A DNA stretch of 62,000 bases, the filler included, from Diploschistes diacapsis (lineage: Eukaryota), in the NCBI GenBank assembly GCA_023645945.1. It is 14 parts of 14 records of this genome, joined end to end, with 100 filler letters (N's around TTAATTAATTAA, not from the genome) between each part and the next. Parts side by side here need not be neighbours in the genome. Positions count along the whole stretch, not along the records: positions 1 to 2,737 come from JALAIB010002094.1; 13 more parts are not named here. One strand, given 5' to 3'. Below, one piece after another: positions 1 to 59,336 of this stretch; within the stretch, counting starts at the first letter, position 1; every line of letters begins with the position of its first letter. The translations under genes were made by a program, and so were the position numbers. The notes beneath the pieces are model-generated. The model saw nothing but the letters and a program-made list of their open reading frames with translations. It was not told the origin of the DNA and did no database searches.

Positions 1-304
1 GTAGATCTTAACTATCTCAAAAAATATATTTAATAATAAAAAATATTTATTTCGTATACCATAGATCTATCGTTAAAAATAATATAAATCTAAATATATT
101 AAAATTTATAAAAGCTATAACGGCGTCGTTTTTATACCCGACGACGCCCTGACTAAATAACTAAATAATTAAATAATAAATATAATAACTGAATAGCTTT
201 TTAAAAAATATATAGTTATTTTCACGTGACCCGTGTCACCGTAATTAGTCCTATATATAAGGAATGGCTGGGACGTGATAAGGTGGGAACCTCGGATCGT
301 AACA
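1..304 (-). mobile_element. LTR of chromovirus family A (truncated at window start)
   Basis: Minus strand begins TGTTACGATC at 304. It shares the TCACGTGACCCGTGTCACC...CTATATATAAGGAA block with the LTR at 748-1201, and ACGTCCCAGCCAT/GGGTCACGTGA with the LTR at 15456. Confidence 0.8.
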
Positions 305-747
305 CGATACCGCTGATAAGTTTTTTAAATATCTTGCTTTATAGTCGCCCTATTATCCAGATCCAGTCCCTTTAAAAAAAGAAGAAGAATTCGGTATAGA
401 AGCCGACTGTTATAGCAGAGGTTCTTATCTTGAATCCTAGAATTACTGGTTCCTCCGCCGTATCCGAAGGACCCCTATTGAATGATTCTAGACATTTAGA
501 ACGCCATCTCGATAAAGTAGTTACATATTTTTTAAAATTCTTTTACGGCAGTCTGAATTTTCCTCTTTAAAACCTGTAATGCTTAGTAATAAGTTTAAAG
601 CAGAAGGGGAAAGTTCGATATATCCTAGATAAACATATAAAAATATATATATATCACGTGTAAATGCTGAACTTTGGTACAGCCGCAGGAATACAGGACT
701 TATTTTTCTTAATATAAACATAACTTATAGACTATCAGCCTACACTG

Positions 748-2737
748 TATTATGATCTCTATCTATACAAGGTATACATAAATAGGATCAAGGTAGGTTT
801 GGTCTCTGGTAGAAGAGGAGTGTGGCAGGAGAAGAAGATAGAGCAGTTACAGGTCTTAGACTGTCTCTGGAAAGAAGGCTCTCTAAAGATAAAAAGTAAC
901 GAATATAAATTGATCTCGAGCAATAACTAGAGATATTTATAAAAATGAACACGCCTTAAATTTATAAAGACTATAACAGCGTTCTTATATAGCCAACGGC
1001 TCCCTAATAGAGTAAATAAATAAATAAATAAAACTACCGTTCTTCTCTTTTATTTATAATAGGGTAGAATGGTCCTTAAAACCTTTTATTCATCACGTGA
1101 CCCGTGTCACCCTGATTGGACTATATATAAGGAATAATTAGGAAATGCCCGACTAATCGTTGCGTGTTAAGTACTATCGTTTAATATTTTAGATCGTAAT
1201 ATTATCCCTTTTTTTTAGTTTTGTCGGCCCGACAAGCGCCGAAGGATTAATATAAGTATTAAATAAAAGAAAATCCTAAATCGTGGGACAGCGATATCTT
1301 CTTTATTTTCGATATAAAAGAAACGTTTAAACTTTATTATCCGTTTTCGAGATTTCTTGAATATATTACCTTATAACCATTGTTTATTTTCTCACGATTG
1401 CATTAAGATATCTTTAGTCTTAATAAAGTGCGCTCGCTATATTAAATCCGGTAAAAAGGATTGCGTCTCTATTACCTAAAAGATAGTTAAACGGACTATC
1501 CTTTCGAAAAAAAACGAAATCGAAAAGGATAAGAAGCTTATTGATAAAAATAATGAATAAGAGGAGGAACTAAAAAAGCAATTTCGTGAAATTAAGGATC
1601 GTCGTTTTTAACGCAAACGTCGCATCCGTCGCAATCGAAAAATCCTTAAGCTAACGAAAGGTCGTGCCGATGCGCAAGTAAGATATTTAACGAAAAAACT
1701 GGACCTAAAGTCGTCTAAGACGTACGCGAACGCCTAAGAAGGTATGTCCTTAAAGTTTAATCTAGAATTATTAAAGTTAGCCGCGATATCGCCGGTTCAG
1801 TTAAACTGGTCTCTAAGGGATAAAATTTTTATCCCTTTAAATTAATTAATAAGTCTACGGTACTTCCTTATCTTATTTTTGTAATTATTTAGGTTCTTTA
1901 AGGATTCTTATATGTTTTATTCCGATAGGTATCCTTTTTATTTAATAAAGAATCCGTTAGGGCTATTATTTAGAATCTTTTCGACTTCGTATTCATTTTC
2001 GTTATCAATTTCGAAATAAAAGGTTTTTTATAGCGGTATATCTAGATATGCCGGTTCGAGATATCGGGAGTAAAACATTAAATAGACTTTCGCGTTTTTA
2101 AGCAGTTTAAGTCGATAACTAACTCGTTGGCTTTTATCTAATATAATAAATTATTTATCGATAAAGAAGGGTTCGATTTTGACGTAATCGAGCTTTTTAA
2201 AAGGTCTACGTGTCCTAAAATTATCTGCGTATAGATAAACCTTATGTTCTTTTTTTAGCTAAGGATTCTTCTTTAAGATTTTAATTTTATTAGTATTATC
2301 CAGTACCTTATCGGTTAATGATTACGTATTTTGAATTCTTTTGACTTTTCTATGCCTGTTGTTAAGGTAGTATTCAGCGTTTAATAATAATTCAATCCAA
2401 TTGTCCATATTTTAGTTAATATAATGTCGTAAATACTGTTCAAGAATCTGATTTATTTTTTCTGTTTAATCGTTTGTCTGTGGGTAATAAATATTCGAAT
2501 ACTTTAATTTCGTGCCGAATACTTTTATTATAATTTTTTAATATTTTAAGGTAAAGAACCTATTTCTGTCGTTAATGATCCTCTTTGGATATCCATATAT
2601 TTTCATAATTCGATTTATTTATATATGATGTAACTGTTTTGCATTATAATCTTTCCTAAAAGGTATGCAATGTGGTTTGTTGTTAAATTTGTTTACTATA
2701 ATTTAAATGCTGTTATATAGAACGCCTATTATTAAAT
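748..2737 (-). mobile_element. RIP-degraded Ty3/Gypsy chromovirus (family A), 3' part: integrase, chromodomain, antisense ORF, PPT and 3' LTR (748-1201)
   Basis: Minus-strand YYPQTND*TEKINQILEQYLRHY (integrase) and ENEYEVEKIL...KGY (chromodomain). A purine tract abuts the LTR start TATTACGATC at 1201; LTR end GATCATAATA at 748 (RIP-altered TG...CA). Confidence 0.88.
1290..1860 (+). pseudogene. Antisense accessory ORF of the chromovirus: Zn2Cys6-like cluster plus basic coiled coil (RIP-inactivated)
   Basis: 1372-1464 translates YNHCLFSHDCIKISLVLIKCARYIKSGKKDC (four intact Cys, two TAT at Cys positions), followed by a K/E/R-rich helical segment with TAA stops. Homologous segments at 7500-7800 and 14720-15365. 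Ends approximate. Confidence 0.65.
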
Positions 2738-2837
2738 NNNNNNNNNNNNNNNNNNNNNNNNNNNNNNNNNNNNNNNNNNNNTTAATTAATTAANNNNNNN
2801 NNNNNNNNNNNNNNNNNNNNNNNNNNNNNNNNNNNNN
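2738..2837. other. Artificial contig spacer (N44-TTAATTAATTAA-N44). Identical spacers at 5571, 8403, 11227, 14050, 16869, 42362, 45174, 47986, 50791, 53596, 56398 and 59200
   Basis: The same 100-nt block with a six-frame stop linker occurs 13 times and the flanking sequences are unrelated. Confidence 0.98.
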
Positions 2838-4314
2838 ATCATATTTTTACGATCATTTTTCACGATCATTTCTCACGATTATTTTATTTTATCCGAAGCT
2901 TTATATTACCGTAAAGATATAATATTTTATCCTTTATTTCCTATTACTTTTTTTTAGAATGTTATAATTCTGTATACTATCGCGTAAACGGAGAATGAGG
3001 GAAGTAAACGATCTTATATCTTATCGCATAATCTAAAAACGGGGAAAAAAAACGGTCTTATATATTACCGCGTAAACGAAGAACGATAAAAGAAAGGAAT
3101 TCTATATAACGTCATCGATAATAAAAGTTACTCGATTATAAAAAAAAAGTTTTTTGTATAAAGTTCTTATTTATTATCCGTGATAAACTAATTCTTTTTA
3201 AATTCGGATTTTTAATCGACCCGAATAGTCCGTTGTTATTATTTTCTCGACCTTAAAATTTAATATCTTACATACCTGATCGACTATTTAATTAATATTA
3301 TAACAATTAATAAATCGTCGTTAATCTTTAAGAACTTTAAATTCTCGTTAAATTATTAAACGTTATCTTAATTCTTTTTTAAATTTAGTAAACGAATTCC
3401 TTTATATTTAATACTTATTTCCGAACGTATTTATAAACGATCCTTTCTCGACATCATCTTTCGAAAGAAAAGCCTACGAAAGCGCAATAATTACAGAAAG
3501 TAAAGGTCGCCGTTATATAATTTATCCTTCTGAAGCTATAGCCGATTCTACGCCCGATAAAACGATAGTTTTTTAAACCCAATTCATTTCATAATAAAAA
3601 AATATAAAGTTCGGTTCCGGCGAGTTAGTTTTAGCATGTTCAACGCCGGGTAAACGGGGCTATATTCTCGAATTAACAAACCTCTGGTCAATAAGAAAAA
3701 GAATGGAAATATAAGATATATTTCGCCAAATCGCAACGCTGAGTGATAGAGATCTTAAAGTCTAATGCATAATTTGTTATTAAGTTTTCCAGCATCTCAG
3801 AGCTTCTATATAGGGCAGTGAAGGAATATTTAGACATAAAGAAAAGCAACATAACGTTCTATCTCAAATTAATTCTGAATCCAATCGCGCGAATTAACGA
3901 ACCATTTCTTAATATCTTTTTTCGGTAAATAGGTCGTAAGAAATAAACGTGAGAAATTAATCGAAACATAAATTAATATAAGGTCTTATAAGAGGATTCT
4001 TCCCGTAACTTGGCAATACGAACAACGAATAAAAACGAGAAATATAATATAACTCGTGATTTATTAATATTCGGATTAAATCTAAATCTTTCATTTCGTT
4101 GAACGGAAAATTTTATTATAAAAAAGCTATTCAGAAGTTTCGGGTTCAACATTTAACTGCTAAAACGAACTAAAATGAGATAAGAATTAAATAAACTATT
4201 TAACGACGTATAAACTCGATATATTAATACGTTTAAATCGGATAATAAGATTAGTATTACGGTTGATTATTAAACGTCAATTAATTATTTACATTTTTTG
4301 GCAATTATGGTTTA
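2838..4314 (+). mobile_element. RIP-degraded hAT transposon, 5' part (subterminal repeats, BED finger, start of catalytic domain), interrupted by a Copia-type LTR
   Basis: Tandem ACGATCATTT motifs at 2838-2885. BED-like V*CIICY*VFQH...IFRHKEKQH near 3760-3850. KISITVDY*TSINYLHFLAIMVY at 4246-4314 matches the hAT ISxTxDxWTSxN..FLAI motif. Confidence 0.75.
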
Positions 4315-5570
4315 TGTTGAGCAGACAGGCAGAAGGCATGGCTGGGAGTTCGACTGAGTTCCAGTCGGGGGTTCAGTTCAGCTGAACCTCCTGGAACTCT
4401 GACTAGACCGATCGGGAGTAATATTGATAATAAAGCTTAGCGGATCCCGTAAGATATAAAAATCTACGCAGTAAAATATCTTCATAGGATAAGACCTCTA
4501 GACTTCAATATATCCATTACGTTGCCAAACAGGTTATGAGCCCGGGTTAGCCTACTTGAACCCCATCGATCATCTTGTCAATCCTCGAAACCCAGCAGAA
4601 TCGCTATCTTCGCTGCTGGACCCTTTCGACCTTATCCATTATCGAGAATCAGTTAAACCACGCTAAACCATCTCGATATTTCCGACAATAATCGACATTC
4701 AGCTGAACCACGCTGAACCTTCTCGATCATCTCGTTAATCTTCGACATCTAATAATACCGTTATTTATACTATTGAATCCAGTCGAACCTCTCGTTAATA
4801 ATCGAAGTTTAGTTAAACCTACGCTAAATCTTATTGATCATCTCGACAACGATCGATATCCAGCTTTACCGTTATTAAACCGATTCGATCTCTCGTTAAC
4901 CCTCGATATCTAATAAAACCGTTATTTACGCTACTAGATCTAGTCGAGAACCTCATTAATTATCGAAATTTAACTAAATTCTTATTAAGCTTAATCGACA
5001 TCTATTAACCATCGATACCCAACTAAATCTATTATTAGACCGACTCGATACTTCCGACAACCTTCGACATCTAACAAGACCGTTATTTACGCTGCTAGAT
5101 CTAGTCGAATCTCTTATCAATTATCGAAGTTCAATTAAATTATTACTAAACCGCTTCGACACCGATAATAATTAATATCCAGCCTTACCGCCGCTGAACC
5201 GATTCGATCTTTCGATAATCATCGATATTCAGCTTATCGCCGCTAAATTATCTCGATATCTTCGACAATCATCGAGATCCAGCCGAACTACTTCTAGATT
5301 TATTCGATTACTCGTTAATCATCGAAATTTAGTTAAACCGTTATTAAATCCAATCGATTACTTTCGTTTTTATTATAAAGGATTATGTTTTGTATTATTA
5401 TTAAAATATTAACTATTAGTTATTTATTTAAGAAGCGTGTTACTTTTATTCTAAAGAAAAAGAATCAACAGTAATAATTCGAATATATAATTTAAAAGTA
5501 AAGAAGTGAATTACCGTTCTTAATAATTAGCCACCGTCGTTTATTATAGTTATTCTAGATGACTCTATAT
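4315..5570 (+). mobile_element. 5' end of a Copia-type LTR element: LTR 4315-4531, PBS 4532-4543, repetitive leader
   Basis: TGTTG...AAACA followed directly by GGTTATGAGCCC (Copia-type internal tRNA-iMet PBS). The LTR is homologous to the minus-strand LTR at ~51023-51242. Confidence 0.8.
4560..5365 (+). repeat. Degenerate tandem array (~40-bp units, ~160-bp higher-order period)
   Basis: CCGTTATTTA(C/T)(G/A)CT...GATC(C/T)AGTCGA recurs at ~4759, ~4919 and ~5081. Shorter TCGACA/GCTGAACC-like units recur throughout. Confidence 0.65.
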
Positions 5571-5670
5571 NNNNNNNNNNNNNNNNNNNNNNNNNNNNNN
5601 NNNNNNNNNNNNNNTTAATTAATTAANNNNNNNNNNNNNNNNNNNNNNNNNNNNNNNNNNNNNNNNNNNN

Positions 5671-7196
5671 TAATTATTATATCTAATAAAAGGATTTAGT
5701 TCGTTAATTAATTATAATAATATTTATATAATATATTATATATCCGTTTTAAGTTATCGACGGTTTTTTATTTTTAAACGAACGGTTAGACCGAAAATAT
5801 TAATAAGGAAATAGAACGGTATCTGCGAACCTTCGTCTATTATTCGTAAAAGGATTGGGAACGATTGCTACCTATGGCAGAATTCGCTATCAACGCGGCT
5901 AAATCGGAATTAATAAAATATTCGTCATTCTTCGTTACCCGGGGATACGAATTTCGGATATCTTTCAATACCGACAGAATAACGGAACAAAAAGCTACTA
6001 CCCGCGAAAAAATAAATAATCGAAATATTAATACCATCGTCGAAATTATATAAAATATCTAGAACTTCGTTAAAAGACATATAATATTAACGTAATAACG
6101 ATAAAAGCGATACGCGGACGAATACCGACGTCTCGTTAAAAAGATTAACTTCGACAACTCAATTTAATTAAATATACGTAATATTAAAATCACCCAAGCT
6201 TATAAGAAATTAAATAATAAATAAAACGACCTTTACAACGTTTTACAAAAAATAAGCGATATAGATTTCGAGCTGGACCTATTAACGTCAATAAAATAAT
6301 TTAAAACCTTTCATTCGTCTTTACTTTCGAAAGACCCGCAAGACTTTTTAGAAAGATAGACGCATCCTAGACCACCCTCGGTAAAGACGGAAGGCGGAAA
6401 AGAATAAAAGATCGAGAAAATCCTCGACGCCAAGAAAAACCCCGGACGAGGAATAAACGTTTAATACAGGATACGTTAGATAAGATAATCCATCGACGAT
6501 AACTAATATCTCGCCGTTAACTTTAAAAATACCTTCGAAATCCTACGAGAATTTTATTAATTAAATCCCGAAAAAATAAAAACCCCGTGATTAATAATAC
6601 CCGAAAACAAACAATTAACGTCAATAAAAATTATAAACGGAAACGAATTATTAAAATAAAGCGGTATCAATTATCACGACGATCATATTCTTTTATAAAA
6701 TTTAAAAACGTATTTAATTAAAAACGACGTTAAAAAAGATTTAAAAAAACGGAAACATCTATTACGAAAAAATAACGGGTATCTTTTAAATAAATTAAAA
6801 AAAGGGGTGAAGATCGAGGTGAAGATTGACTAAAAAAAGAACATCGCGCTTATAAGAGACACAAGCATCTAAAGAGGGGGGTAGTGAGACAGCCCAGCCC
6901 AGGGGCCTGCCAAGCCACGGCAGGGTTAGTGCCCAGGGGCTTGCCAAGCCACGGCAGGGTTAATGCCCAGTTGCTTGCCAAGACACGGCAGGGTCAGGGG
7001 GTGGCTGTGTAGTCCCCGAACCCCGGTAGGCCTGGTACCCACACTACTTAACGGTGCCCTCCTCCCATCTAGATAGTTTCTTCTTCAGCTTTTCGAATCG
7101 AGACCTTTTACCTGCAGATGCCCAAGCTACACCTAATCCTTCCGGATCAGGCCCAGCCCCCGGTGGAGTAGCATCCTTTCCTGCGCTGGCGTTTCA
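5671..7196 (+). mobile_element. RIP-degraded Ty3/Gypsy chromovirus (family B), 3' part: integrase, chromodomain, PPT, 3' LTR 6885-7196
   Basis: TNG*TENINKEIERYLRTFV...W..LLPMAEFAIN integrase motif; KIEKILDAK chromodomain start; AAAGAGGGGGGTAG PPT followed by TGAGACA...GTTTCA. Confidence 0.85.
6898..6995 (+). repeat. Three 34-bp tandem repeats inside the family B LTR
   Basis: Unit CCCAGGGGC(C/T)TGCCAAGCCACGGCAGGGTTA(G/A)TG. Also present inverted at ~7817-7930. Confidence 0.9.
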
Positions 7197-7800
7197 TAGA
7201 TTTTTTAAAAAACTCGATCATGTTAAGGTCGAACCTTTTTTTATCGATAAATAACCCGTCATACCGGACGAAATCAAGCGAGTTAATTATCGACTTAAGT
7301 TACTAAAGGACGCGAAAGTTTATCCAGTGTTCCATTCCCGGTACCTCGAATTAGTACATCTAGATACATCGTTATAAGAAACCTTCTATTTCGAACCAAA
7401 CAACGAGAACGAATACGAAGTCGAAAGGATTCTGGATAGTAGTCCCAGGGGATTCCTTGTCAAGTGGAAAGGATATCCATCGGAACAAAATACACTCATT
7501 TAACCTGGAGGGATAAGAGCCTTATCCCCTAAAGACTAATTCAACTGAGCCGGCGACATTGCGGCTAGTTTTGACAATTCTAGACCAAACTCCGAAGGTA
7601 CGTCTTTTTAAGCGTTCGTATACGTTTCGGACGATTCTAAGTTTAATTCTTCCGTTAAATATCTTACTTGCGTATTCGTACGGTTTTCCGTTAGTTTAAG
7701 AACTTTTCGGTTACGATGAATGCGACGTTTACGTTAAAGACGACGATTTTTAATTTCACGAAATTATTTTTTTAATTCCTTTTCTTATTTATTATTTTCT
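7197..7800 (+). mobile_element. Fragment of chromovirus family A (integrase end, chromodomain, C-terminal part of the antisense ORF)
   Basis: Aligns by eye with 14350-14620 and with the reverse complement of 1550-2200; ENEYEVERILDS..GFLVKWKGY. Confidence 0.85.
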
Positions 7801-7942
7801 CTACACAGCCACCCCCTGACCCTGCCGTGTCTTGGCAAGCACCTGGGCATTGACCCTGCCGTGGCTTGGCAAGCACCTGGGCATTGACCCTGCCGTGGCT
7901 TGGCAGGCCCAGCTTGGCAGGCCCCTGGGCTGGGCTGTCTCA
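7801..7942 (-). mobile_element. Truncated inverted copy of the family B LTR
   Basis: Reverse complement of 6885-7012 with one short extra duplication. Confidence 0.9.
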
Positions 7943-8502
7943 ACGATAGTAGATATATACGTTTAGGAATCTTCTAATTTGTGTGATATTTCTAGGAATT
8001 GGCCAATCCATTATCTTTAAGATCTTCTTTGTTTCTAGAAAGCGTCCTTCGGGGGTGTAAAGATGTCCACTATCTTTAACTTTTCAACGTCTTATTATAA
8101 CTTTTTTTTTAAGATAACTACATCGGCTATTTTTATTGTATATAGGGCCTAATCGATATTTTGAATATGTTTAAGTATATATCTCCGTTTTTTAAATAAA
8201 GCTTATTTTCTATTATAGATGTATTTAGGGTCCTTAATTCTAAAATCGTTAAAAAAGGGTTAAACGATATAAAAAAGATCGATAAAAATGATTATTATTA
8301 TTCGTATAAACTATCCGATCGAATTAATGCCTCTTTATAATAAAGTAATATTCCTTAATAGATTTAAAGGAATCGATAAGGCCGTAAAATTATAACATCT
8401 TTNNNNNNNNNNNNNNNNNNNNNNNNNNNNNNNNNNNNNNNNNNNNTTAATTAATTAANNNNNNNNNNNNNNNNNNNNNNNNNNNNNNNNNNNNNNNNNN
8501 NN

Positions 8503-11226
8503 GAATAATAAAAAATTTTAAAAACATAGTTTTAAACGCGTAAATTAATTATACGCTCGTGATTAGCAGTTTATATCGGCCCTTTATTCTTAAAGCGCTT
8601 TATTTAGTATTTATTAGGCTCTATTAGCCTCAAACAATTCGTCCTTTTCTAACTTAATTTAATTAGAATAGATAATCCTAGGATATTATGCTCAATCGAG
8701 GCTTTATAACCTGTTACTTCTGCTAGGAAGATGGTTATTATAAGGTACGTTACCCATTATTACAGCCGTTTTTCCAGAATGGGGACATCTATATGTAAGA
8801 AAACAAGATCTTCGTTGGTCCGAATAACCATTTATAAGCATAACAGACCAACCTTTATGGGCAGGGCACGATGATTAAAAAGCTTATATCTTAGATTAAT
8901 AACTAAAAAAAGATTTATAGGAATAAAGTTCTTTCGAACCCTCGCTCTCTACAGCAGATCTAAATTAGGTCCTTATATTAAATGTTAGCCTATAATGTGG
9001 TTAATACTAAATTTAGGCCTAAAGATTTCGAAGAAGAGGAAAGTGACGAAAAGATGATGAAGCGTTTTTTTATTTAATCATACGAGGCCAATTATTAGGA
9101 TATATATGAAACTAATACGGCAATTAAAGGACGCCCTATTAAACAGTAGAAAGATACATTTGAACGGAAAAACCTTTTAAATCCGAAATTTAACGAGCGT
9201 CGCCGGGTCCTGAAAGAAAAAACGATCGAAGAACAACGATTCCCATAGAACAAGAACGTTAAAAAAGAAAGGTATATACGGCCTACTATTGTTATTTTAT
9301 AGCTTGCTATACTTAATAATACGGAAAGACGAGAGCCGGATATATAGGAAATTATTATAAAAGATGTCGAAAAATCTAAAGAAGTAGGTCGGGAAGTATA
9401 GATAATTTTACCTAGCGGAAATACACCGGGAAGGATTTTAATAAATCGTCCCCGCGTTTCCGCCGTCCGAAAGCTAAGGATCTCAGGAAAAGCAGCCACT
9501 AATCTGTTAAGAGAATGGGCTCTCAAGATTGTTAAAGGAACTGAAATCAAGATTATTTTAAAAGAGGTTTTTTAGATAGGAATCATACGTTTACTTTAAG
9601 AAGAGTTAAAGAATTATGCGGTCGAAGAGAATGCTTATATAAAAGATTCAGAACCGAAAAAGTTTATTTATTCTACGCATAACCTATCCGCCAGACAATT
9701 TAACAGGTATAGTATTAATTCGAAACAGCTGATCGATATAATAAATTTATAATTATAAGATATTATGTATTCGGTTACTTATCCGGAAGTAATAATTATA
9801 ATCGAGAATTATTAGATTCGTATACTGCTTGATAGTAGTTCAGAAATAAATATGATGGAGAAATGTATAGTAGATTAATTGAACTTAACGATCACTCCTT
9901 ACAAAGAGATCTCGTTGATGGATACCAATTCAGGAAAAATTATTATAGTGGATATCGTGGAAAATATTATTGTATCGGTCGGAGCTGTTACGGTTCTATA
10001 GTCCTTCTTGGTGGTGACTCGGACCAGCAAGCCGCTTATCTTAAGAACCCTTTATATATCAATAATTACTATATAGGCCAGCTATAAAAAGGATAAATCT
10101 ATTAAGATCACGATTACAGACCTAGTATCGAAAAGATAAGCAATTTTTATTAAAACATACGGGTCTAATAAGCGGATTAAGAAATTATCCGACATCCCGA
10201 ATAATAAATAGTCTAAAATTAAGATTCATAATTAGAAAAACGAGTCGTAAAGATTTTAACCGAGGAAGGTCCTCTTCTTTCATATCCCGAAGAACGGAAA
10301 TTAACGATAGAAATTTTTTATTTATTTTGTTCTTATAGTTTTCATTTATCAGGTTCAAAATCGAAAGACAGATAATCTTTACTATCAAAAGATCCTAAAG
10401 GTCCATATTTTACTATCATTATAGAAAAAACATAACAGAAGTTTAATAGGGCCTATTATAAAAGTTTATATATCTTTCAACTAAAATCATTATAAGGACA
10501 GATTCCTTATTCCTTTCGTATATCGAGAAAGTTCGATATTAAATACGATGTTTTAAAATACTCATTAATACCGCATATAAAAAGATAGATCAGAAGATAC
10601 GTCTTAACGATAAACCTAACCTAAATATTAATATTACGCTAAGAGACTCGTCTATATAAAGAAAAGCGGAATTATAAAGGATGATTTCAGCCGCAAAAAT
10701 AACATTAAACGACGAATATTTTGGTCTTATTATCCTAAAGTTTTTATAAATGGTTAAAGGGGAACGCATTACGAAAAAACGGAAACAGATTTTAAAGATA
10801 AATAAATAACTTATTAAAGAAGAAAAAATTTTATTAATAAAAGTATTATAAAATCGGGAAATAATTTTAATCTAAAATTTCTCTTATATGGGACGTATAC
10901 GCCTAGAGATTGCGCCGTTTTAGGAAATAAATACTATCGATCACGAAGCTTAATAAATAAAATCCTTTCGTATTTCAAAAGCTTTAGAGCCGGTAATAAT
11001 TAAGATGCTTTAAGAAAGAGTCGATGTTGGGATATTAAAATACTATTAAGGACCGTATAAGAATCTATAGTTTTTAATAATCAAGACTGATCTTAAAAAA
11101 TATAAAATAATAAATACGACGATATATATTAATAAAATAACTCGTCGGGACGTCAATTTATTCCTTAACACGAATAATTTTATAAAATCTTTCGCAGCAC
11201 AGGCCGTGGATTTCTTAATAAACATG
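8503..11226 (+). mobile_element. RIP-degraded Ty3/Gypsy gag-protease-RT fragment
   Basis: CYFC*EDGYYKVRY zinc knuckle near 8712; LLDSSSEIN protease motif near 9824; YKNL*FLIIK and TRRDVNL RT N-terminal motifs at 11055-11160. Confidence 0.82.
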
Positions 11227-11326
11227 NNNNNNNNNNNNNNNNNNNNNNNNNNNNNNNNNNNNNNNNNNNNTTAATTAATTAANNNNNNNNNNNNNNNNNN
11301 NNNNNNNNNNNNNNNNNNNNNNNNNN

Positions 11327-14049
11327 ATCTTGAACCGGTCGAGCATCTTTTTAACGTAAGCTTTTTAATCGAGGTTCAGCTGAATTATTCCCTGGCGTTA
11401 TCGCTAAACTCTTATTTCTAAAATCTTTTTAATCTCTTCTAGATTCTTGATCTTATAGCGTTCAGCGAGGATTTTCTTAAACTAATTCACGTCTCGTAAT
11501 TTAAATACTATTACGATAATATCGTCGACGTATAAATTAATCAATAGCTTTCGATCTTATAAAATAAAAACATAAAGATCGGCGTCGCATCTTTTAAATC
11601 CTAAATTCAGAATTATATTATCGTATTTCTCGTACCAGTCTTTTACTGCCTACTTTAATCCGTATAAGCTCTTATTAATTTTCAAGATAATATTCCTAGA
11701 GACGCTATATCCTTTAAATAACGTTATATAGATCTAATACGTTAATGACGTTTTCGTAAACGCGTTATTAACGTTTATTTAATAATATTCTAGATCTTTT
11801 ACTGCGATGACCGTTAATAGGATGCGTAGAGAATCCGCTCGAATAATAAGAACAAATATCTCGTTAAAGTCGATTCTTTTTTACTGCGAGAACCTTTTTA
11901 CAATTAATCTAGCTTTAAATCTCTTAATGTCGTCATTGAGATTATATTTCACGTCGAATATTTATCTTAAGTTTACTATGTTGGTATTTTTTGGTTCAGG
12001 TAGTTCAGTCTAGGTCTAGTTTAGAAGTAAGGAATCGATTTCTTTTTTTATTGTTTTTTTTTATTCTTTTCTAACGATTGGGTTATTAACGGCATTTCTA
12101 TAGATCTTTGGAATGATGATTCGAGATAATCTTGGTTTAACGTCGCTGGTTATTTTCTGCTTGCTGGCGACTAGTGCGATATGGCTCCTTAAGGTTTTAA
12201 TCGATAAGTATCCTTTATTGTCCCGTTCTCGTTTGTTAATAACAGGGGTCGTGTTAAACAGCTTTTTGTCTTAATGCGTAATTATTGTTATTGATACATT
12301 ATTCACGTTTATCTTGGTTGATTTAGGTTCAGAGTCGAGTTTAGGTTTAATGTTTTTTTTTAGAATTTTTACTCGTAAGAACTTTTTGACTGAAGTATCG
12401 GCTCCTAAGGTGCTATGATCTGCAACCGATTTAAATGATTTAGTATCTTCTGTCTGGCTTTTTGGAGTATAGGTTTTTAGGGTGTTATATTTTACCGCTG
12501 GTTTAGATGGTTTAGTATATTCGTTTTAAATTCCTTATTTTTGCATTATTGATGCCCTATTATCGTCCGTGGTTGACGTATTATTGCCGTTTGTTATTGA
12601 CGAGGTATTTATTCCTTTAATATTATATACTGGGTTAGCGGTTGGTCGTCCTATTAGCTTTCGGATAAGTATTACGTTATCGCTTTTTTTATAGTTTTCG
12701 GGAAGTTTCAACTTTTAAAGAATAAATGTTTTATTTTCTTTAAATCTGACCGAGCTCGTTCTAATTATTTTTTAAAGATCTGGTATTTAGATCTTATATT
12801 GTTTATCGGTGTCGATATATTTAATTAATATATAGAACCTTGTTCTGTCTATTAGCTTATTTTGTCGTTTAAGTAGTAATTTTGGATTTATGTAGCTATA
12901 GTATCTTAATCTTTAGACGCGGAAGTGGTTTATTGACGGCTTTTTTTCTGTTTAATATTCCTTAAGTATTATAATTGAATCGTTTAATTCAGGTTTAGTT
13001 ATGATTATATTTTTAATATAACATTAAGCTATCGTTATATAATTTTAAAAGACGTATCCTTGTTTCGTTTTCTTTAATATGGCTCGGATATTTATTTTAA
13101 TAATTTATATAGATTTTTTTATAGTTTTATTTTGACTTAATATATAGGATATTATAGATTCTAATTAAATTCTTAAATTTCTCCTTTAATTTTTAATGGT
13201 GGATATTAGTTCAGATATATTGTCGAGACGTATTGCTTTAAGTTGTCTATTATTTTAGAGTTTTACGTTCATTTTCTAGTGTTGTATAATGCGAACGGCT
13301 TCTTTTCGGGTTTTGTATGGGATAGTTTAGGTCCTACGCGAGTAGTTATCTACGATTTTTATGAAGTATTGGTTGTTTTTAATGGATTTTAGAAATGGAC
13401 CGCAGATGTCGATGTTTATTAGGTCTAGTAAATTATGCTTATATTTAACGAGTGTATGGTTTATTTACTGCCTAGCTTTGGTCAGCTGGCATATCTTACA
13501 GGTATGTGGTATAACTCGGATCGGATTAATAAGCGTTGTTATTTTATAGAGATATTAAAGCCTTTTAGGTTTTATATGGGCAATACGTGCATGCTATAGT
13601 TAATAACTGGTTTTGTTTAATTGAATTTTTAGGTTCAGTTTAGGTTCAGTTATTTTTGTTAAGTACGCTTTTGCAGCATATGTATGTTCTTTTTTGGCAA
13701 TTTTGCTTGTGTAATAACTTCTATTCTTCTTTTTGTACGTAAGAATGATCCGTTCTTCGTTATTATGTAAATATAAGCCATCTTGATCAAAACTTTCCCG
13801 GAAGTTTACTTTATATAACTTTTATTTCGATATACGGTTCGCTTTTAATCCTAAAATATACATAATATATCTTAAATATAAAATATTATTACTATATTTC
13901 ACCCTAATCATCTCAGCGTAGTCTAAATATAGTATTCTTCCCCCGATTTTGATTCGTCGTCTTTAAATAGAAGTCAATTTTCTAAACAGATGCAGCTGAT
14001 TAGTCATGTAAAGGATGAAATGCAGTAGTGTGATAGTAATGGTTATAGT
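11327..14049 (-). mobile_element. RIP-degraded Ty1/Copia pol (GAG-pre-integrase, integrase, RT)
   Basis: Minus strand: L*HARIAHI, CKICQLTKA, INIDICGPF, LYGLK*AVKDWY, NLYVDDI, in Copia domain order. Confidence 0.93.
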
Positions 14050-14149
14050 NNNNNNNNNNNNNNNNNNNNNNNNNNNNNNNNNNNNNNNNNNNNTTAATTA
14101 ATTAANNNNNNNNNNNNNNNNNNNNNNNNNNNNNNNNNNNNNNNNNNNN

Positions 14150-15920
14150 TAGGTTAAATTGTTATTATAAGCCGAATACTATCTTAATAATAAATATAAA
14201 GAAATCAAGAAAATTTAAAATATATAATTATTAAATAACGAGATATTGAATGATGTTAGGAGACTTAGAGTCTTAAGGAAGAATCCTTAACTAAAAAAGG
14301 AGGATAAGGTCTACTTATATATAAATAATTTTAGAATACGCAAACCCTTTAAAAAGTTAGATCACGTTAAAATCGGACTCTTTTTTATCGATAAACAACC
14401 CGTTATACCGGACGAAATCAAGCGAGTCAGTTATCGACTTAAGTTATTAAAAGATGTTAAAGTATATTTAATGTTTTATTTTAGATATCTCGAATTAATA
14501 TATCTAGATATATCTTTATAAAAAACCTTTTACTTTGAATTAAATAACGAGAACGAGTACGAAGTCGAAGCAGTCGTGTATTGTAAAGATAACAAGTATT
14601 TGGTTAAGTGGAAAGGATATCTAGAGTCAGACATGACATGGGAGCCTAAGGAAAACCTAGGGAATTGTAAGGGAAAGTTAATAAAGTTTTATAAAGTCAA
14701 TGGATCTTCTATAAAGGATAACTGAGACTAGGGTTGGAAAGTTTAGAATATTTACGTACACTTGATTTAATTCGAAGAAGCAGCGGCTCCCTCTTGCGAA
14801 GGAGATACTGAAAGTTTACCGGGTCAAATAGAATGTTCTAGCTTGCATCCGTATTTTTAGGAACTTTAATAGTAGGTTAGGGACCGAATAATTCTGCTTA
14901 AAAATCCGTCGATGCGAGAGTATCTTTTGTTAACAGATTTTCGTTATTATCCTTTAGTTGTTAAGTAAGGTAACGAGTTTTCGTGATCGTTTCCTTCTGC
15001 GTTAATTTCTGAACCTTACGTTCTCTATCAATTCTTATTTGTATCTCAGAAAGTTCTTTAAATTTCTAATCGCGATCCCGTTTTAAAGACAACAATTTCG
15101 CAGCTTATTAATTACGGATCTTGTCCAACGAAAATTACGAGCGAAAGGAATAAGGCCTCTTTAAACGGATATATTTAAAATATTTATTAGAACCAACGTT
15201 AATATTAAAAGGAATTATGAAATAAAAATGATCGGAAATTAGATAAGAATTATAGACTATCTTAGGGAAGTATCGAAGGGATTTAATTTCGTCGGCGAGA
15301 CGGAAACGTTCCTTTCTTCTATTGCAGTGTGTGACTTTACGTTGACGACGAGTTGAAGAATCCATTGTCGAGAAACGGGAGGGAGATTAATTTTATTTAT
15401 ATAATTAGACCTTTCGGTTTATTGTCGGGCCGATAATTCCGAAGAAAGGGGATAGTATTACGATCTAAATTATTAACCTATCACGTCCCAGCCATTTATT
15501 AAGGAATATTTATTGACGTTCGGGTCACGTGAGTTGTTAGAACGAGCGGCGCCGCTCTATACGTTCTATGAAAGCAATAGGCAGCGCTTCTTCTGTTTTA
15601 TAGGAGCCATCGCCGGCGCTTTTTTCGTTTTAATAAAATATAAGGAGCTGATACTGGTGCTTTATAAAAGATTTAGATATATAATCTTTCTTTTAAATAT
15701 ATCTTTATTCGGTATATTCACTTTTATAAATATTCTTAATTATTATTCGGGATTAATTTATATTCATTATTTTTATTATTAAAGAGCTTTCTTTTTAGAA
15801 ATAATCTAAGATCTATAATTATTCTATCTTTTTCTCTTACTTGCACTTTTCTTCTAAACGAGACTAAACCTACCTTGATCAATACCTCGTGTCTACATTA
15901 TAGAAATAGAGATCATAACA
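14150..15920 (+). mobile_element. RIP-degraded chromovirus family A-related 3' part with chromodomain, antisense ORF, PPT and LTR 15456-15920
   Basis: ENEYEVEAVV...YLVKWKGY.ESDMTWEPKENLGNC chromodomain; GAAGAAAGGGGATAG PPT; LTR TATTACGATC...GATCATAACA homologous to 748-1201. Confidence 0.9.
14720..15365 (-). pseudogene. Antisense accessory ORF (Zn2Cys6-like plus coiled coil), RIP-inactivated
   Basis: ATG at 15365. Six TAT codons at 15150-15254 are spaced Y-x2-Y-x6-Y-x13-Y-x2-Y-x6-Y, which becomes a binuclear zinc cluster if TAT derives from TGT. 3' end approximate. Confidence 0.65.
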
Positions 15921-16163
15921 TTCGAACGGTCGTTGATTTTTACGTGTTTTATTAGGTTTAAGGAACTAATATTATCGCCGAATAAATTAATAATATATAA
16001 AGATAATCTTATAAGATCAGAATAATTAATATTTTTTAAAAATATTGAGCATTATAAGGCTTATTTGGCGGCGTGAGATAAATTAATATATTTAATTTTT
16101 ATAATTGACGTTAAAACTAAGTTTTGTTTTTTGTTTATTTAGGACATTGATCCACCGTATAAC
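15921..16163 (-). mobile_element. Copia RNase H remnant between two LTR insertions
   Basis: KQNLVLTSIIKIKYINLSHAAK*A and LFGDNISSLNL...INDRS resemble the KQxxVAxSTxEAEY and DNxSA...RSKH motifs. Confidence 0.7.
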
Positions 16164-16868
16164 TGTAAGGCCAAGCAAGGAGCATGCCAAGAGTCGGACA
16201 AGCGGCACTCAGGGTCTTGGCTTGCGGGTACTTGAAGGGGGATTTTGCCCTTTTTACTCTCTCCTCTTCTTTAATAATTAGTTCTAGCATAAATCTACCC
16301 TACGTACAACCATCTTGTTATATTGTCGTATTTAATTTTTTTATAGTTCTAATTACTTTACCTTTCATAAGGACGACGATTCGACAAGATAACACGTTCT
16401 TCGTAACGTATACGTAAAGTAAACCCACGCAACTAAATTAAAATAAAAGAAAGTGAAAGAAGAAAAAGAAATAAACGATCTAGAATTATTTTACTTAATA
16501 AAAAGGATTTAGATCATACCGAGCAATAAGAATAAAACTCGTAGTCTAAAGATAAAGCATTAGTAGGCGAATCGTTAAAGCAAAAAGATAATTTCGAATC
16601 TATATTAAAGGATATATTAAAAACAGTAAAAAACATACAATTAAAAATAAAATAAGATATAAAGTTTAAAGAAAATTAAATAATAAAAGCGAGAAAAGAT
16701 ACCGTCGTCGAGAAAATAAAAAGAATTGTTATTAAAACAGTATTAACAGCCGAGATAAGGTATAAGGGATAATTAAATTAAGATCATCTAAATACCATAA
16801 ATAGCTACCGCGATATTAAATTAAATAAATTATTACTTTTCTATAGAAAAATTGTTCAGGAATATAAT
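16164..16868 (+). mobile_element. LTR (16164-16367) and RIP-degraded downstream gag-like region
   Basis: TGTAAGG...CCTTTCA imperfect terminal inverted repeat, followed by AT-rich degenerate coding-like sequence. Confidence 0.5.
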
Positions 16869-17099
16869 NNNNNNNNNNNNNNNNNNNNNNNNNNNNNNNN
16901 NNNNNNNNNNNNTTAATTAATTAANNNNNNNNNNNNNNNNNNNNNNNNNNNNNNNNNNNNNNNNNNNNAGATGGGAAAGAGGGGAGATGGGGGAAAGAGG
17001 AGCAGTTGGTTGGACCCACAGCTGCACCCCGGCATATTACAGCTGATCTGAGACAAACAGTTAAGTCCGTGCATAACATAATTATGCAAGTTTAATGAC

Positions 17100-31440: not shown

Positions 31441-34400
31441 TCATTGGACCGTCTCTTCCTTTTCTCCACTCCCGAGTAAAGAGCGAAACCCCCACGATGC
31501 TCTCGCACGCTCGTATGCCGTCGGCCTTTTTTTCTGGTGCACATTCTCCTTCTGTACGACCTCTGGCGTCTTCTTCTCGACAATCTCCCACTTCGCCGGC
31601 GTCGTAAAGGTACCCAGCGAGTCGGTCGCACCGTTCTTAGGCCAGCGGTCAATGTGGCCTACGCTCTGTAGCTTACCGGAGTATTGTTTACTAAGCTCTT
31701 CGTAGAGGGTGCGGTATGTGTCGGCACTCTTGTCAAACTCGCCGAGACGCTGGTAGGAGCGCTTGAGCAGCTCGAGGTGAAGACGAGCGGTTTCGCCGAG
31801 GTCATGGTCGGCGTCGACACCGTCTTCTTCGTCGCCGTACAGGACTAGACGGAGGATCTCCTCGTGCAGACCCATTGCATCACGGTAACGCTTGGCACCT
31901 GTGTAAAGTTGAGAGAGGATGAGGTACATCGAGAGCGTGTGCTTGTCGAGCGAGCCGAGGGTGCGGCGCAAGTTATACGCAATGTCTTCGGCAAGATGGA
32001 TGGCGGAGTCGTGGTGACCGTGGGCAAAGCGGGCGATGACGAGTGAGCGGCCAACTTGAATGAGGGTGTCGCGGGACCACGTCTTCTGGACTGTGCGAGA
32101 AGACCAAAGTGAAGCAAGCAGGGTCTGTGGGATATGTAAGCAATGTCAAATTGGGGGGTTGAGATTCATAAAGACTCACCTCGAGGTTCTGATAGTTCTG
32201 CTGTTCGCCTAGGAGGCCAACGAGGGCGTCCAGATCCTCCATGGTGAGCTGCACAAAGTTGATGTTGTGCTCGCGGCAAGCATCGAAGACCTCTTGGATG
32301 ACGGAGCGCGAGAGCTCAAGCATTTCCTTCTGAAGCTTATTCTCGCCCTTGCCGTGCACATCACGACCGGCAAGGTAGAGAGACAGCTTGAAGCCATACC
32401 CAATATTGTGCAGATGCCGGTAGGCACCTTGGGAAGAAAGGAATTGGAAGGCACAAAGAGCCACTTCATAGGCCTGGCGGTACTGACCGGCCTCTACCAG
32501 GGATTTGACCCTATTGTTACTGGCAAGGCAGGCAGCGTCCACTATATGATGCTGATGTCGACTTCCTCTACCCAGTTCTTCGAGCAATAGCTCGTAGAAT
32601 ACAAAGGTAGTTTCGCGCTTGGTCTTGAGGTGGGTTCCGTATCTCTTAAGGAAAACCTCGAAGAGTTGATCGTCCAACATTTTGATTTGCTGATCACGCT
32701 TCCGAGTGACCAAGAACGTCCGCAGCTGAGATCCGAACTTGAAGGTCGTTTCGAAGCGATCAGTCTTGACGACTTTGATGTACTGCTCGTAGAGAAATGT
32801 CTCGGTGAGCAAGTCAACCATGATCTCCGTGTAAGAAACTCGTTCCTTGCGTAGCAAACTCTCCTCGAAGGCCACCAGAAAAACGTAGGAAATCTTCCCA
32901 ACCTCGTGGTCAAGACTGAAGCTGCACCCAGAGTTATCCTTGTAAATGATCTGACGGCGAAGCATTCGCAAAAGCTCAAATCCATGCTCAGGTAGCTCGC
33001 AAGTTAGATAGATACCCGCTAGAGAAACGGCCGCCTGGAACAAGCGCTCGGAGACAGTCTCCTTGGAGATGATCTCCACCGCATGACTCTGTAAAGAACG
33101 GACAACCACTGCATGCGACTCTTGGGTATTCTGCTTTCTGTAAAGCAGCATCAATTCACGAAGCTCCGTCAAAGTGGTTTCGTGCCAATATCCGTACTGC
33201 ATCTTTAGCTCATCGAAGCGTTCCTTGACCAATCCAATGCCGCGTTCAGCAATAGCCGGAGACTTTGACTTCCCGGAATTGATGACCTTAATATACGTGC
33301 GACTAAGGCGCTTTCTAACTTCGTTGATGACTGTAGTAGTTACTGTCACGGTCGTGACGGTTGTGGTAGTCTTAGTCGTCGTTGTCTTCTTGATCACTTC
33401 TTCATACCGGCGAATAGCTTCTTCGTGATGGCTCTCATGTCGTTCGCATACCTTGGCAAGGGAGATCATTGCAGTGATGGTTAGCGTGGAGGATTCACCA
33501 AAAACCTTAACAACCGTTTCATGATACTGGACGGTGATCTTATAGAGCAGCGAGTATTCCGCCCTCGAATGATGATCGAGGACATAGACATAATTCTCGT
33601 AGATGGTGATGATGAGTTCCTCTGAGAATTTGTACTCGCTGGAATGATGTACGAATGACTCCCAGAGAGTCTCACAGATGGCCTTCAGCTCGGTCCAGCG
33701 CTGCTCCTCGCGATAGTGCTTGCAAAGGATGGCTGCAGCCTCGAATGCTTCTTTGTGACAATGCTTGTGGCCCTTGTTGAGAACAGTGACGATTTCTTGG
33801 TAGTAGTCGTAGCCGCCCTTCATGCCGTATGCGACGCAAAGAGCACCAAGGGCGTACAGAGTGCGAATAGTAAGTTTATGAGTGGCTCCTAGATTCTTCT
33901 TGTACCCTTCCAGAAGCTCGACGTAAATGGAGATAGCTTTGTCGTGTCGATGATAGTCTTCATAGAAGCGTATCAAGATTAAAGCTGCGTTCGTTACCCG
34001 CTCATCGTCGATCTTCAACGTGGTAATGCAAGAGCGAAAGATGCGTGAGTATATGCGTTCCGACTTCTCGTATGACTCTAATTTCCGGTAGGAGAGCGCC
34101 AGATGATAAGCGATTTCGATGGATTCCAAGACACCTTCACTTGGTAAAGATAACTTGCCTTCGCCTGTTATGAGAGTACCCCATGTGAGTTCCAGAGTCT
34201 TGGTGATAGTCTCGACAGCAAGGGTCCAATTCTCTTCGTGGACATACAAAGATGCCAGAGCTGTTGTCGCTTTGATGAGCTCTGTGTAGATCTTGGACGT
34301 CTTGCACCGCTCATAGGTGACTTCATAGACTTCACGAACAGTAGCAGTCGAGACTTTTGTTATTGTCGTGGTCTTGGTTTCAGTCGTGGTTTTCTTAGTC

Positions 34401-37400
34401 ACCGTTCTTCTGACCTCTTCTTCAACCGTCTCGGAAATCAAAACAGTAGTTGACTTGGCCTCTTTGTCGTCGATTCTGCCGCTCTTCTTGTACCAGCCCC
34501 ATACAGCTGTGAAGACAGAGATTGCGACGGCCAGAAGTCCAACGGCCTTCATGGTTTCTCCAATCTTCTTCAAGCGAATAGCGATTACTTCGGAACCGTG
34601 CATTTCATGCCCATACTCACTCCAGATAACCATCAGGATGTTGGAAGCCTCCTCAATGCGGCTATGCCTTCTTAGAAACTCGACGTACGAGAGCGCCATG
34701 TCGATCTTGAGCACGTGCATGTCAACAGTACGCTTTGAGCGGCAAACTTCTGTGACTCTCCGCCAGAGGGTCACATAAATCTCTTCGGCCTCAAAGGTCT
34801 TTCCACGAGCAGCAAAAGCTTCCGCTTGTCTTATCGTTAGCTGGATCCGCTTCCTATCCCAGACCTCAAGCGTTTCTTCGGCAGTTTCGAAAATTGAGGT
34901 GGTATACCTCTCAACATCCTCGGACTTTCCATCCTTGTTGATCACGACAGTAAGCTCCTCAGAGACTTCCCTAGCTTGCTCTGAGGATTTGCCGTACTTC
35001 TTGATTGTGAGCTCATAGACCTCATGGTACATCTTCGCGGCCTTGCTTTCCTCGTGAATAGCCAAGTACAACGCCGCGAGGGCTTTGCAATGCTTGATGA
35101 CGATCTCACTCTGGTGTCCATGCTGGTGCTTGTGAACCTCAATTATGTATCTGAGCATTTCCTCCTTGAAGGTCACGAGTTCCGTTCTTGATGTGAACGT
35201 GAAAGATTCGACGCAAGCCAGGAAGAGCTTAGTACACTGGACAGTAATGATGCTGTACTCGCGAAGGACCAGCTGTCCAATCTTAGATGCTCGATAATAG
35301 CAGACACCGGCTTCACGTTTCTGGGCCAGCTTATCGTGGAATAGGGCCACGATAATCAGAGACTGGAGAACATCTTCATGTTTGTCGCCAAGTATGCTTT
35401 GGCGGATGCGTAGAACAAGGTCATGTAGGTGGAATGCCTCCATAATCGAGGTTTGAGATTCCCAACAAGCCCATTCTAAAAGAGCAAAGAATGTTGACTC
35501 AGGGTAAACGTGCTTGAGCTCGACTGTAGTAGTGATTCCACCTTTGCTATCGATCCAGGACGACTGGCGGAAATGAGAGGCCCAGTACCGTACCGCATAC
35601 TCGAGAAGCTGATGGTTCTGAAAGACCTCATCCACCGTGGTTTTGTCCAGGCTTTCAAACGAGGGCTCGGAAGGTTTCGCGAGGCGAAGCTTTACATAGA
35701 GTAGCAGCTTCAGGACCAGCTCTTTGTGAGCATCGATCAAGCGTATCGATTTACCTTCACGGGCTTTCTTCATGAAAAAGTCTCGGATGGTGGAGTGCCG
35801 AAAACGTAGGATGCCATTTCGGATGACCACTGCGGGACCGCACATCTCCTCAATGTGCTTATGACCATGGGTATGTGTCTCGATAGATCCCTTAGCAACA
35901 TCAATCTTGAGGAGATCTTGTACTTCAACCAAAGTTAGAGGCCTTTCGGCAATCAACAGCCAGGAGAACAAATGCTTAACATCGGGCTTCGTAAAGTCAA
36001 TGCTGGAGAATAGCTTTTCCATGAGACTGATTTGATCTGTAGGCGCCTTCATAACAACTTTAATGTCATTCTTCTGGATGGCTTCAGCCTTTGAGGTTCT
36101 CCAAGCAAGTTGTGCCCACACGAAAGAGGCTTTGGCATTATCAAGAATCCAGTCAAGGATCTGATCTTTCTCAACAGCGTTCAAGGTAGAGTATTGTTGG
36201 ACGACTTCGAGCTCTGCCCGAACAAACCTATGGATGTCATCGCGGACAAGGTCAGGCTTTAGATTAAGAACGCGTCGGCCCTTTGCGGTACTCGGGGGCC
36301 ACGGCAAGGGCTGACTAAACACGATTGACCGGGCATTCCCAGACTTTGTGGAGATCTCATTCAAGCGCTCGCAGATGCGTGTCTGCACAGGCTCTCCACC
36401 AGCAATTTCATTCAGACCATCGATGATAAGAACCAAATTAAAGTCCTTGGACTTTGTCACGGTCTGGATGCCTGTTCGCAGAGCATGCCACAGCTCGTCC
36501 TCGACCTCGGATCCCGTCTTCGAAGTGTAAGAGATTTGATAGGCCCGGACAAGGTGATTGTAAAGATGTGCATCACCAGCATCGCGTTCTACTAGTTGGA
36601 TTAACAAGCCCTTGATGAAAGCTAAGGAGGTCCTCATGCTAGGAACGTCGGCTTCTAGGGTACTTCATTAGCTCCGTGGATGACAAAAATAGCCAATATA
36701 CTTTACCAAACGTGAACGAAATGGTCTCATACGACTTCCTCCCAAGCGGTCTCTGTAGTCTTTCCTCAGCCCAGCCTGAAAGAACCGACTTTCCACTTCC
36801 TGCAGCACCGTCAATGGACATGATATGATCGTTGCTGCGGAAGAATTCAAGTAGATGCCTTTGCAGCCACTCGCAGGAATACTCTGCTCGGACTGTCTTG
36901 GCAGCCGCGCCATCGGAAACAATCAACTGCAGCGTGTTGTCACGAGGTCCAAGCCAACTTCGGATCGCAGCAATGTCAACGGCTGCGAGTATGGGTCAGC
37001 AGGCAACCTATGATAGGAGACAAAGCAGGACTAACATTGCTCAACCTTGTTTAAGCTGTGACTCCAGAGGATGTCCACAATGATTGTCTTATGCCGGTTG
37101 AAGTTCTCCATCTTGCGGCCAAAGAGACCCGAAAAGTCCACGGAGACCGAACCCGATGATAGCTCTAGGGAGAACTTAGTCTCAGTCACTGCGTGGGCAA
37201 CACTCCGGGCTTACCGCCAGTTCGTTTCCTGTAGTAAACAGCAACGTCCCCAACGAGGGATGTCAGATCGGAGTAGGCATGAGCCAATTCGTCTCGGACC
37301 TTGCTGCTTATATGATGCAGCCGCTTGTTGCGCAAGAAGAACGATATGGACAATCCTAGCTTGTAAAAGACGCCGAAGGAAGCCTCCAGAGCCTTGGCAT

Positions 37401-59199: not shown

Positions 59200-59336
59200 N
59201 NNNNNNNNNNNNNNNNNNNNNNNNNNNNNNNNNNNNNNNNNNNTTAATTAATTAANNNNNNNNNNNNNNNNNNNNNNNNNNNNNNNNNNNNNNNNNNNNG
59301 CAAGGAACAAGCGGCTGGTTTTGCCCCGGAACATAC

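Follow-up and report, generated by a model that had tools for sequence, protein, structure and literature searches.

The closest described counterpart of the locus reported here is brtn, the 'additional antisense gene' of Boty-like Ty3/gypsy elements of Botrytis cinerea and Sclerotinia sclerotiorum, which lies between pol and the 3' long terminal repeat (LTR) (Zhao 2011, Virology 417:248, as quoted in passages of PMC8365987, PMC7264820, PMC4227169 and PMC5987419); passages of the same four papers assign a CHROMO domain to Boty gag-pol. Additional antisense open reading frames between pol and the 3' LTR are also listed, in a passage of PMC7264820, for the plant elements Grande1, RIRE2, Retand and PvRetro13, where place and orientation are the same and the frames are said to be conserved within element families; these are, however, plant elements of mostly non-chromovirus lineages, and no sequence relation is expected. 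Here we analysed a stretch of 62,000 nucleotides of Diploschistes diacapsis DNA (GenBank assembly GCA_023645945.1, filler included), hereafter called the window, in which decayed Ty3/gypsy elements of the chromodomain-carrying type (chromoviruses) share the layout of Boty: in these fungal elements an extra gene follows pol ahead of the 3' LTR and is encoded on the strand opposite to gag-pol. We conclude, with a probability of roughly 0.7, that positions 1294-1845 (+) are a dead copy of the antisense accessory gene of one ascomycete Ty3/gypsy chromovirus lineage, and that this gene would encode a dimeric six-cysteine protein acting on the element. The layout itself is already in print, with brtn of Boty, and was overlooked when a preliminary description of this DNA stated that canonical chromoviruses encode only gag and pol; the present frame, which we call copy 1, is a dead new member of the class of retrotransposon antisense genes. 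The likeness to brtn is one of layout only: the six-cysteine motif and the long helix of the present family are not mentioned for BRTN in the passages of the citing papers, and neither an NCBI protein nor a protein named BRTN is among the family matches. To judge by the label of one public DNA run, moreover, the host is no relative of Botrytis.

The accessory gene is read opposite to gag-pol. On one side it borders the chromodomain end of pol, which its tail faces, and on the other the polypurine tract (PPT) and 3' LTR, with its start towards the LTR. For copy 1 the features are the following:

930..1204, minus strand: 3' LTR of the element, limits approximate, from direct repeats and a pairwise alignment
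1206..1216, minus strand: polypurine-tract-like run, A8GGG on the sense strand of the element, between the LTR and the antisense start
1294..1845, plus strand: copy 1 of the probable antisense accessory gene, killed by repeat-induced point mutation (RIP); phmmer E 3.3e-35 to protein P0005 (query 7-171); profile match at 1306-1821 with 182 bits
1372..1464, plus strand: six-cysteine motif of copy 1, now Y-x2-C-x5-C-x9-C-x2-Y-x7-C
1477..1740, plus strand: equivalent of the long helix, acidic in its first and basic in its second half, with a conserved Cys codon now TAT at 1684
1842..2737, minus strand: 3' part of pol, comprising the integrase C-terminus with an SH3-like part and then a chromodomain-like end

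The plus-strand frame from 1291 reads ...LPYNHCLFSHDCIKISLVLIKCARYIKSGKKDCVSIT up to a stop and continues into a charged tail rich in K, E and R; the part that bears the motif, upstream of this tail, is ...RLNFIIRFRDFLNILPYNHCLFSHDCIKISLVLIKCARYIKSGKKDCVSIT. It closes with TAA at 1843-1845 and contains five internal stops, every one of them TAA. Its start at 1294 was placed by alignment with relatives, which puts ATA where these have their start Met, and positions 1 and 5 of the motif are Tyr, both encoded by TAT. The pol frame (YEVEKILN...FFIKxKGYLSE) runs from 2737 to 1845 on the minus strand and stops at 1844-1842; RIP has degraded it, and the end of the contig truncates it. Pfam Chromo has no match in this decayed pol, where only SH3_Tf2-1 was found (E 0.033), but the stretch 2396-1851 shares 55% protein identity with the pol end of the diverged element described below (E 2e-56, tblastn), and by this similarity the pol end of copy 1 is placed as chromodomain pol. 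Pol and antisense frame stand tail to tail and their stops overlap (1844-1842 on the minus and 1843-1845 on the plus strand), so that any two such transcripts would overlap at their 3' ends.

The A8GGG run presumably serves as the PPT. Direct repeats at 102-126/958-982, 151-174/1010-1033 and 222-246/1093-1117 relate the 3' LTR to a second LTR-like copy at ~95-300, ~860 bases to its left on the same contig, and the box TCACGTGACCCGTGTCACC is common to both, at 222 and 1093; judged by these repeats the left copy is either a solo LTR or a neighbouring one, next to the element's own 3' LTR.

Database relatives show the frame to be what remains of a true, conserved protein-coding gene. With the stop-masked frame of copy 1 as phmmer query against 1.84e9 representative proteins we obtained 13 relatives at E<=0.001, eight of them at <=1e-10, and a profile search added P0018 to the family. 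The best relative, P0005, is an intact protein of 183 amino acids that is 43% identical to the query and colinear with it (query 7-171 on protein 6-170); the intact gene of this lineage has no intron. The relatives are open frames of 180-201 amino acids that are mutually 42-66% identical, and all six that possess the N-terminus share the spacing C-x2-C-x5-C-x9-C-x2-C-x7-C. The protein consists of a basic N-terminal arm, the six-cysteine motif, a helix of ~88 residues, first acidic and then basic, and a short conserved C-terminal tail (FGPEL..LA..SP). The ten relatives that were looked up, one of which bears the name 'hypothetical protein', are all singletons and come from ENA, Logan or JGI; none of the seven family proteins checked has a precomputed Pfam domain. 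Copy 1 belongs to the family of P0005, P0006, P0008 and P0018 by its full-length match and its conserved Cys and Trp columns. Three relatives (P0005, P0008 and P0013) sit on contigs of 6155, 6215 and 6783 bases, i.e. near 6 kb, and P0018 on one of 1727 bases. Scans of viral and prokaryote genomes gave no match to the family, and P0008 as lone query found no relative in a metagenome scan. One metagenome locus (L001) was rejected as family context; its open frames look bacterial, and the 52 residues that match do so by chance.

Comparison with the natural intact relatives, which here served the purpose of a de-RIPed consensus, shows what copy 1 has lost. The columns of its two TAT tyrosines in the motif, Y28 and Y50, hold Cys in 5/5 and 8/8 relatives, respectively, bearing out the earlier proposal that these tyrosines had been cysteines, and the column of Y132, the TAT at 1684, holds Cys in seven of nine. 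Stop 63 aligns with Trp in 8/8 and stop 149 with Trp in 3/5 relatives, while the remaining stops fall in columns that include Gln or Arg. The changes at stops, cysteines and start are G-to-A or C-to-T, as RIP would produce. Copies compared with one another differ mostly by transitions: 66 of the 67 differences between copy 1 and copy 3, a further copy in the window, are transitions, as are 465 of 487 variant places among the thousands of look-alike contigs in a public DNA run (X1), where a G>A variant also occurs in the Cys2 codon at 1382. As read from its sequence, copy 1 is dead and RIP-inactivated, and no functional copy of the gene is left in the window.

Compared with public DNA runs, the region 1150-2737 shows the element family to be present in very many copies, with 5543 contigs in X1 and 19854 in X2 at a likeness of at least 80%, whereas two further runs (X3 and X4) had none; variants of the element family in X1 and X2 are nearly all transitions. 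One of these two runs bears the label lichen metagenome; it contains 0.45 of the sampled words and may be the source of the window itself. Skipping joints in the run alignments were set aside; each stems from a lone contig of 80% likeness, and the repeat is high in copy number.

The window holds three pol 3' ends (identified by tblastn), which lie on three separate contigs: copy 1 in the piece 1-2737, copy 3 in 5671-8402 and copy 2, which belongs to the diverged element, in 14150-16868. Because the window joins separate contigs the three copies are not chromosomal neighbours. The features of copies 3 and 2 are:

7204..7503, plus strand: pol 3' end of copy 3 with the start of the chromodomain (Chromo 26.4 bits, cut-off 25.1; tblastn)
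7524..7805, minus strand: copy 3, helical and C-terminal half of the antisense gene (profile 92.5 bits, independent E-value 6.6e-30)
14153..14725, plus strand: pol 3' end of copy 2 with chromodomain (Chromo 45.1 bits, E 9.5e-12)
14709..15365, minus strand: copy 2, antisense frame of the diverged element, with nine stops (profile at 14898-15041, 6.3 bits, independent E-value 0.0018)
15254-15150, minus strand: six-tyrosine motif of copy 2, Y-x2-Y-x6-Y-x13-Y-x2-Y-x6-Y, with all six Tyr encoded by TAT

Behind each of the three pol 3' ends an antisense frame stands tail to tail, which is the location known from brtn; the profile match is strong in two copies and weak in one. Pol closes with a stop before the antisense region in 3/3 copies, and Chromo scores above its cut-off in copies 2 and 3. 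The observations on which the preliminary description was built hold: the antisense frame of copy 1 lies where it was described, flanked by the chromodomain end of pol and, on the other side, by the PPT and 3' LTR; the all-TAT six-tyrosine motif is present at the same place and in the same orientation in copy 2; a third, partial copy expected near 7500-7800 was found at 7805-7524 (-); and within the window the gene goes with the retroelement at every pol 3' end. The statement that the cysteine spacing is kept between copies is not exact, since the spacing is 5/9/7 in copy 1 and 6/13/6 in copy 2. The third copy is a retroelement copy as far as the pol end and the antisense half are concerned, but it is not part of an intact element.

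Copy 3 is 77.7% identical to copy 1 (1547-1836) at the nucleotide level, is less mutated and is a member of the same family by its profile match; its pol end and antisense piece stand tail to tail, and upstream the antisense piece is truncated by an inverted-repeat arm. A protein search with copy 3 found no relative of longer length. The ~790 bases of pol end and antisense half have a GC content above that of their surroundings and are flanked by 110-nt inverted repeats (6903-7012 and 7801-7910, 95% complementary) made of 34-nt tandem units, with perfect 31-nt outer arms at 6885-6915 and 7912-7942. By this arrangement 6885-7942 looks like a foldback or a unit resembling a miniature inverted-repeat transposable element (MITE) that carries a retrotransposon fragment.

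Copy 2 shares with the family its place, its orientation, the six-tyrosine pattern and an RYLT/RCL stretch. It did not match the P0005/P0006/P0008/P0018 family significantly, neither by profile (6.3 bits) nor by hhalign (probability 6%, E 0.0061, 30 columns), and a protein search with it found no relative at E<=0.01. We also scanned the six frames of 1-16868 for the loose pattern [YC]x2[YC]x5-6[YC]x5-13[YC]x2[YC]x6-8[YC], which occurs there only at the motifs of copies 1 and 2. Dinucleotide shuffles of the same stretch gave on average 0.175 matches, and two matches were reached in 5/200 shuffles.

The predicted structure of the protein is dominated by its helix. AlphaFold2 models of P0005 and P0018, computed from alignments of 11 and 13 rows, respectively, contain a single helix at 62-149 (P0005) or 62-148 (P0018), i.e. 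~88 residues, with a predicted local distance difference test score (pLDDT) of 81-98, and a short helix beginning at Cys4 (47-52); the helical tail that the preliminary description had read from the sequence is thus modelled as one long helix. Its first half carries a net charge of -7 to -10 and its second half one of +9 to +11 in all five relatives considered. The N-terminal arm has a net charge of +3 to +6 in the four relatives that have it, while P0010, which lacks the arm, scores 0. When two copies of P0005 were modelled together with four zinc ions (the custom alignment was not used in this job) the homodimer scored 0.47, compared to 0.22 for the best of three controls. In the calibration of this score, from which the job differs by the added zinc, the mark was reached by 21/30 solved same-chain pairs and 0/23 single chains of microbes; for eukaryotes the corresponding numbers were 17 of 29 pairs, one of seven pairs without an older solved relative and none of 30 single chains. 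Between the homodimer runs 76% or more of the contacts recur, and the pLDDT of the partner is 74 or higher. The best contacts (residues 76 with 111, 93 with 93 and 69 with 121) are antiparallel, in agreement with the charge pattern, which lays the acidic half of one helix on the basic half of the other. The helix of the family thus probably pairs as a homodimer, as the model suggests.

From these parts a mode of action may be sketched. The six cysteines would bind zinc, and a two-zinc cluster is possible since the two halves of the motif resemble each other. Two chains would lie head to tail along their helices, the acidic half of each against the basic half of the other, and either end of the resulting rod would bear one basic arm and one cysteine domain. 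The antisense promoter from which the protein is expressed would most plausibly lie within the 3' LTR or close to it; at best guess the protein would act in the nucleus on the LTR DNA, cDNA or RNA of the element, as a regulator or helper. The preliminary description had proposed auto-regulation, integration targeting or anti-silencing as its role. Among the literature listings and abstract openings searched, no description of a zinc- or cysteine-cluster gene in a fungal retrotransposon was found.

How far could the motif be that of an established family? The preliminary description had assigned it to the Gal4-type Zn2Cys6 architecture, and a true Gal4-type Zn(II)2Cys6 factor, dimerising through a parallel coiled coil and binding CGG-like half sites such as might lie in the LTR, is the alternative that follows from this assignment. 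Its appeal lies in the six cysteines in two like halves (CX2C...C and CX2C...C), in the long helix that comes after the cluster and is modelled to dimerise, and in the restriction of both groups to fungi. The second half of the motif (C-A-R-C-x7-C), with its Gly and the short helix at Cys4, resembles one lobe of a zinc cluster, and copy 2, read with Cys for TAT, gives x2/x6/x13/x2/x6. Among the ESM Atlas clusters, one of the nearest three is automatically named 'Zn(2)-C6 fungal-type domain-containing protein' (score 0.91, 206/256 features, 77 members, Ascomycota), with no common Pfam family. The profile, spacing, loop, PDB and dimer tests, however, all speak against membership. PF00172 (Zn_clus) had no match at E<=10 in three window readings or seven relatives, and the seven proteins of the family profile search have no precomputed Pfam domain. 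None of 14 relatives fits C-x2-C-x6-C-x5-12-C-x2-C-x6-8-C, the usual Zn2Cys6 consensus, because their first loop has five residues (x5 in 6/6); the middle loop of copy 2 is one residue above the range of this consensus. Gal4-type clusters carry basic, DNA-contacting residues between Cys2 and Cys3, whereas the loops of the six relatives (AFEFP, LFEHT, FPEHE, LSDFQ, LFDHP and LFDYF) are hydrophobic or acidic and contain no such basic residue. No Zn2Cys6 chain is among the matches of a PDB profile search at E<=10, the best of which (E 0.16) are coiled-coil-like pieces only, and no Zn_clus cluster is among the nearest named Atlas clusters of the N-terminal 72 residues. Gal4-type factors dimerise through a parallel coiled coil that follows the cluster, an arrangement not borne out by the homodimer, which is modelled as antiparallel; moreover, the present protein, with ~180 amino acids, lacks a regulatory or activation domain and is carried by a mobile element. 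By these tests membership of the Gal4 type is not supported, and we regard it as unlikely, although the protein may work in a related way.

Other explanations question whether the protein is what matters, or whether there is a gene at all. The protein may be minor or not bind DNA, being an adaptor, a particle protein or an RNA-binding helper, or the main effect may be that of the antisense transcript itself, which would converge on the 3' end of pol and form double-stranded RNA that feeds or tunes small-RNA silencing of the element. The overlap of the stops at 1842-1845, by which the transcripts must overlap, speaks for this, as do the halves of the helix, acidic and basic, which may neutralise each other, and the want of a match to any DNA-binding family; according to a passage of PMC8365987, LTR retrotransposons of Botrytis are major sources of small RNAs. 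On the other hand, the frame has stayed open and the cysteines invariant across relatives that are only 42-66% identical, and selection has therefore acted on the protein and not on a transcript alone; the basic N-terminal arm, in addition, fits nucleic-acid binding or nuclear import. We consider this explanation, too, doubtful. That the frame is a one-off captured host fragment, or an open frame without a gene, arisen by chance or read on the wrong strand, gains something from copy 3, which sits inside an inverted-repeat unit and not in an intact element, from the intact relatives, which are known as proteins without surrounding DNA, and from copy 2 with its insignificant likeness. It is contradicted by 13 database relatives with E-values down to 3e-35 and conserved Cys and Trp columns, by the recurrence of place and orientation at all three pol ends, which belong to separate contigs and represent two diverged lineages of elements, by the shuffles, only 5/200 of which reached the observed pattern count, and by the stop that ends pol before the antisense region in every copy. 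Capture or chance is hence largely refuted and highly improbable.

The reading we prefer, an antisense accessory gene for a six-cysteine dimer protein that acts on the element, has its own weak points. The tie to a retroelement comes from this window and from the ~6-kb contigs of the three relatives, and homology of copy 2 to the family is weakly supported and not established. The cysteine region was modelled at a pLDDT of only 42-60 in both AlphaFold2 models, and the pairing of the helix is a matter of model confidence and not of measurement. If the helix does pair as modelled, its basic half is buried on the acidic half and therefore not free for nucleic acid. Finally, no family, structure or named protein among the matches suggests a function. 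A bolder version of the same idea would be that a widespread ascomycete chromovirus lineage encodes a new small zinc-binding factor, expressed antisense from the 3' LTR, in which antiparallel helices, zippered by charge into a rod, would carry at either end a basic arm and a six-cysteine cluster of non-canonical type, and which may bridge two nucleic-acid sites such as the two LTRs or cDNA ends; we put this forward tentatively and hold it to be rather improbable.

As to the window as a whole, it is a chain of separate small contigs, whose joints (N44-TTAATTAATTAA-N44) are spaced every ~2.8 kb and whose pieces shrink gradually along the window from 2833 to 2802 bases; the single large piece is a contig of 25 kb at 16969-42361. 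The linkers are:

2738-2837: linker
5571-5670: linker
8403-8502: linker
11227-11326: linker
14050-14149: linker
16869-16968: linker
42362-42461: linker, with further linkers on to 59200-59299

The six small left-hand pieces are rich in AT (GC content 0.30-0.37). Their RIP index TpA/ApT is 0.98-1.13, compared to 0.82 in the genic 25-kb contig, and their index (CpA+TpG)/(ApC+GpT) is 0.62-0.70, compared to 1.23. The 25-kb contig contains an open frame of 1563 amino acids at 31973-36664 (-) that matches TPR_12 (58.9 bits) and, weakly, the winged helix of glycosylphosphatidylinositol (GPI) inositol-deacylase; judged by these matches its protein looks like a fungal protein of the NOD-like receptor (NLR) type.

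The copies in the window are dead and ordinary and of little weight alone. What they lead to is a family that shows a conserved third gene in some fungal chromoviruses, whose product combines a metal-binding-like motif with a pairing helix. For annotation this means that such frames are masked by RIP and by gene callers that expect gag-pol only, and that they should not be filed as host Zn2Cys6 factors. If the protein regulates or targets the element, it would offer a handle on the self-control of fungal retrotransposons or on their response to host silencing, and if the idea of a zinc-binding bridging factor were true, these elements would be 'complex' retrotransposons, comparable to the complex retroviruses.

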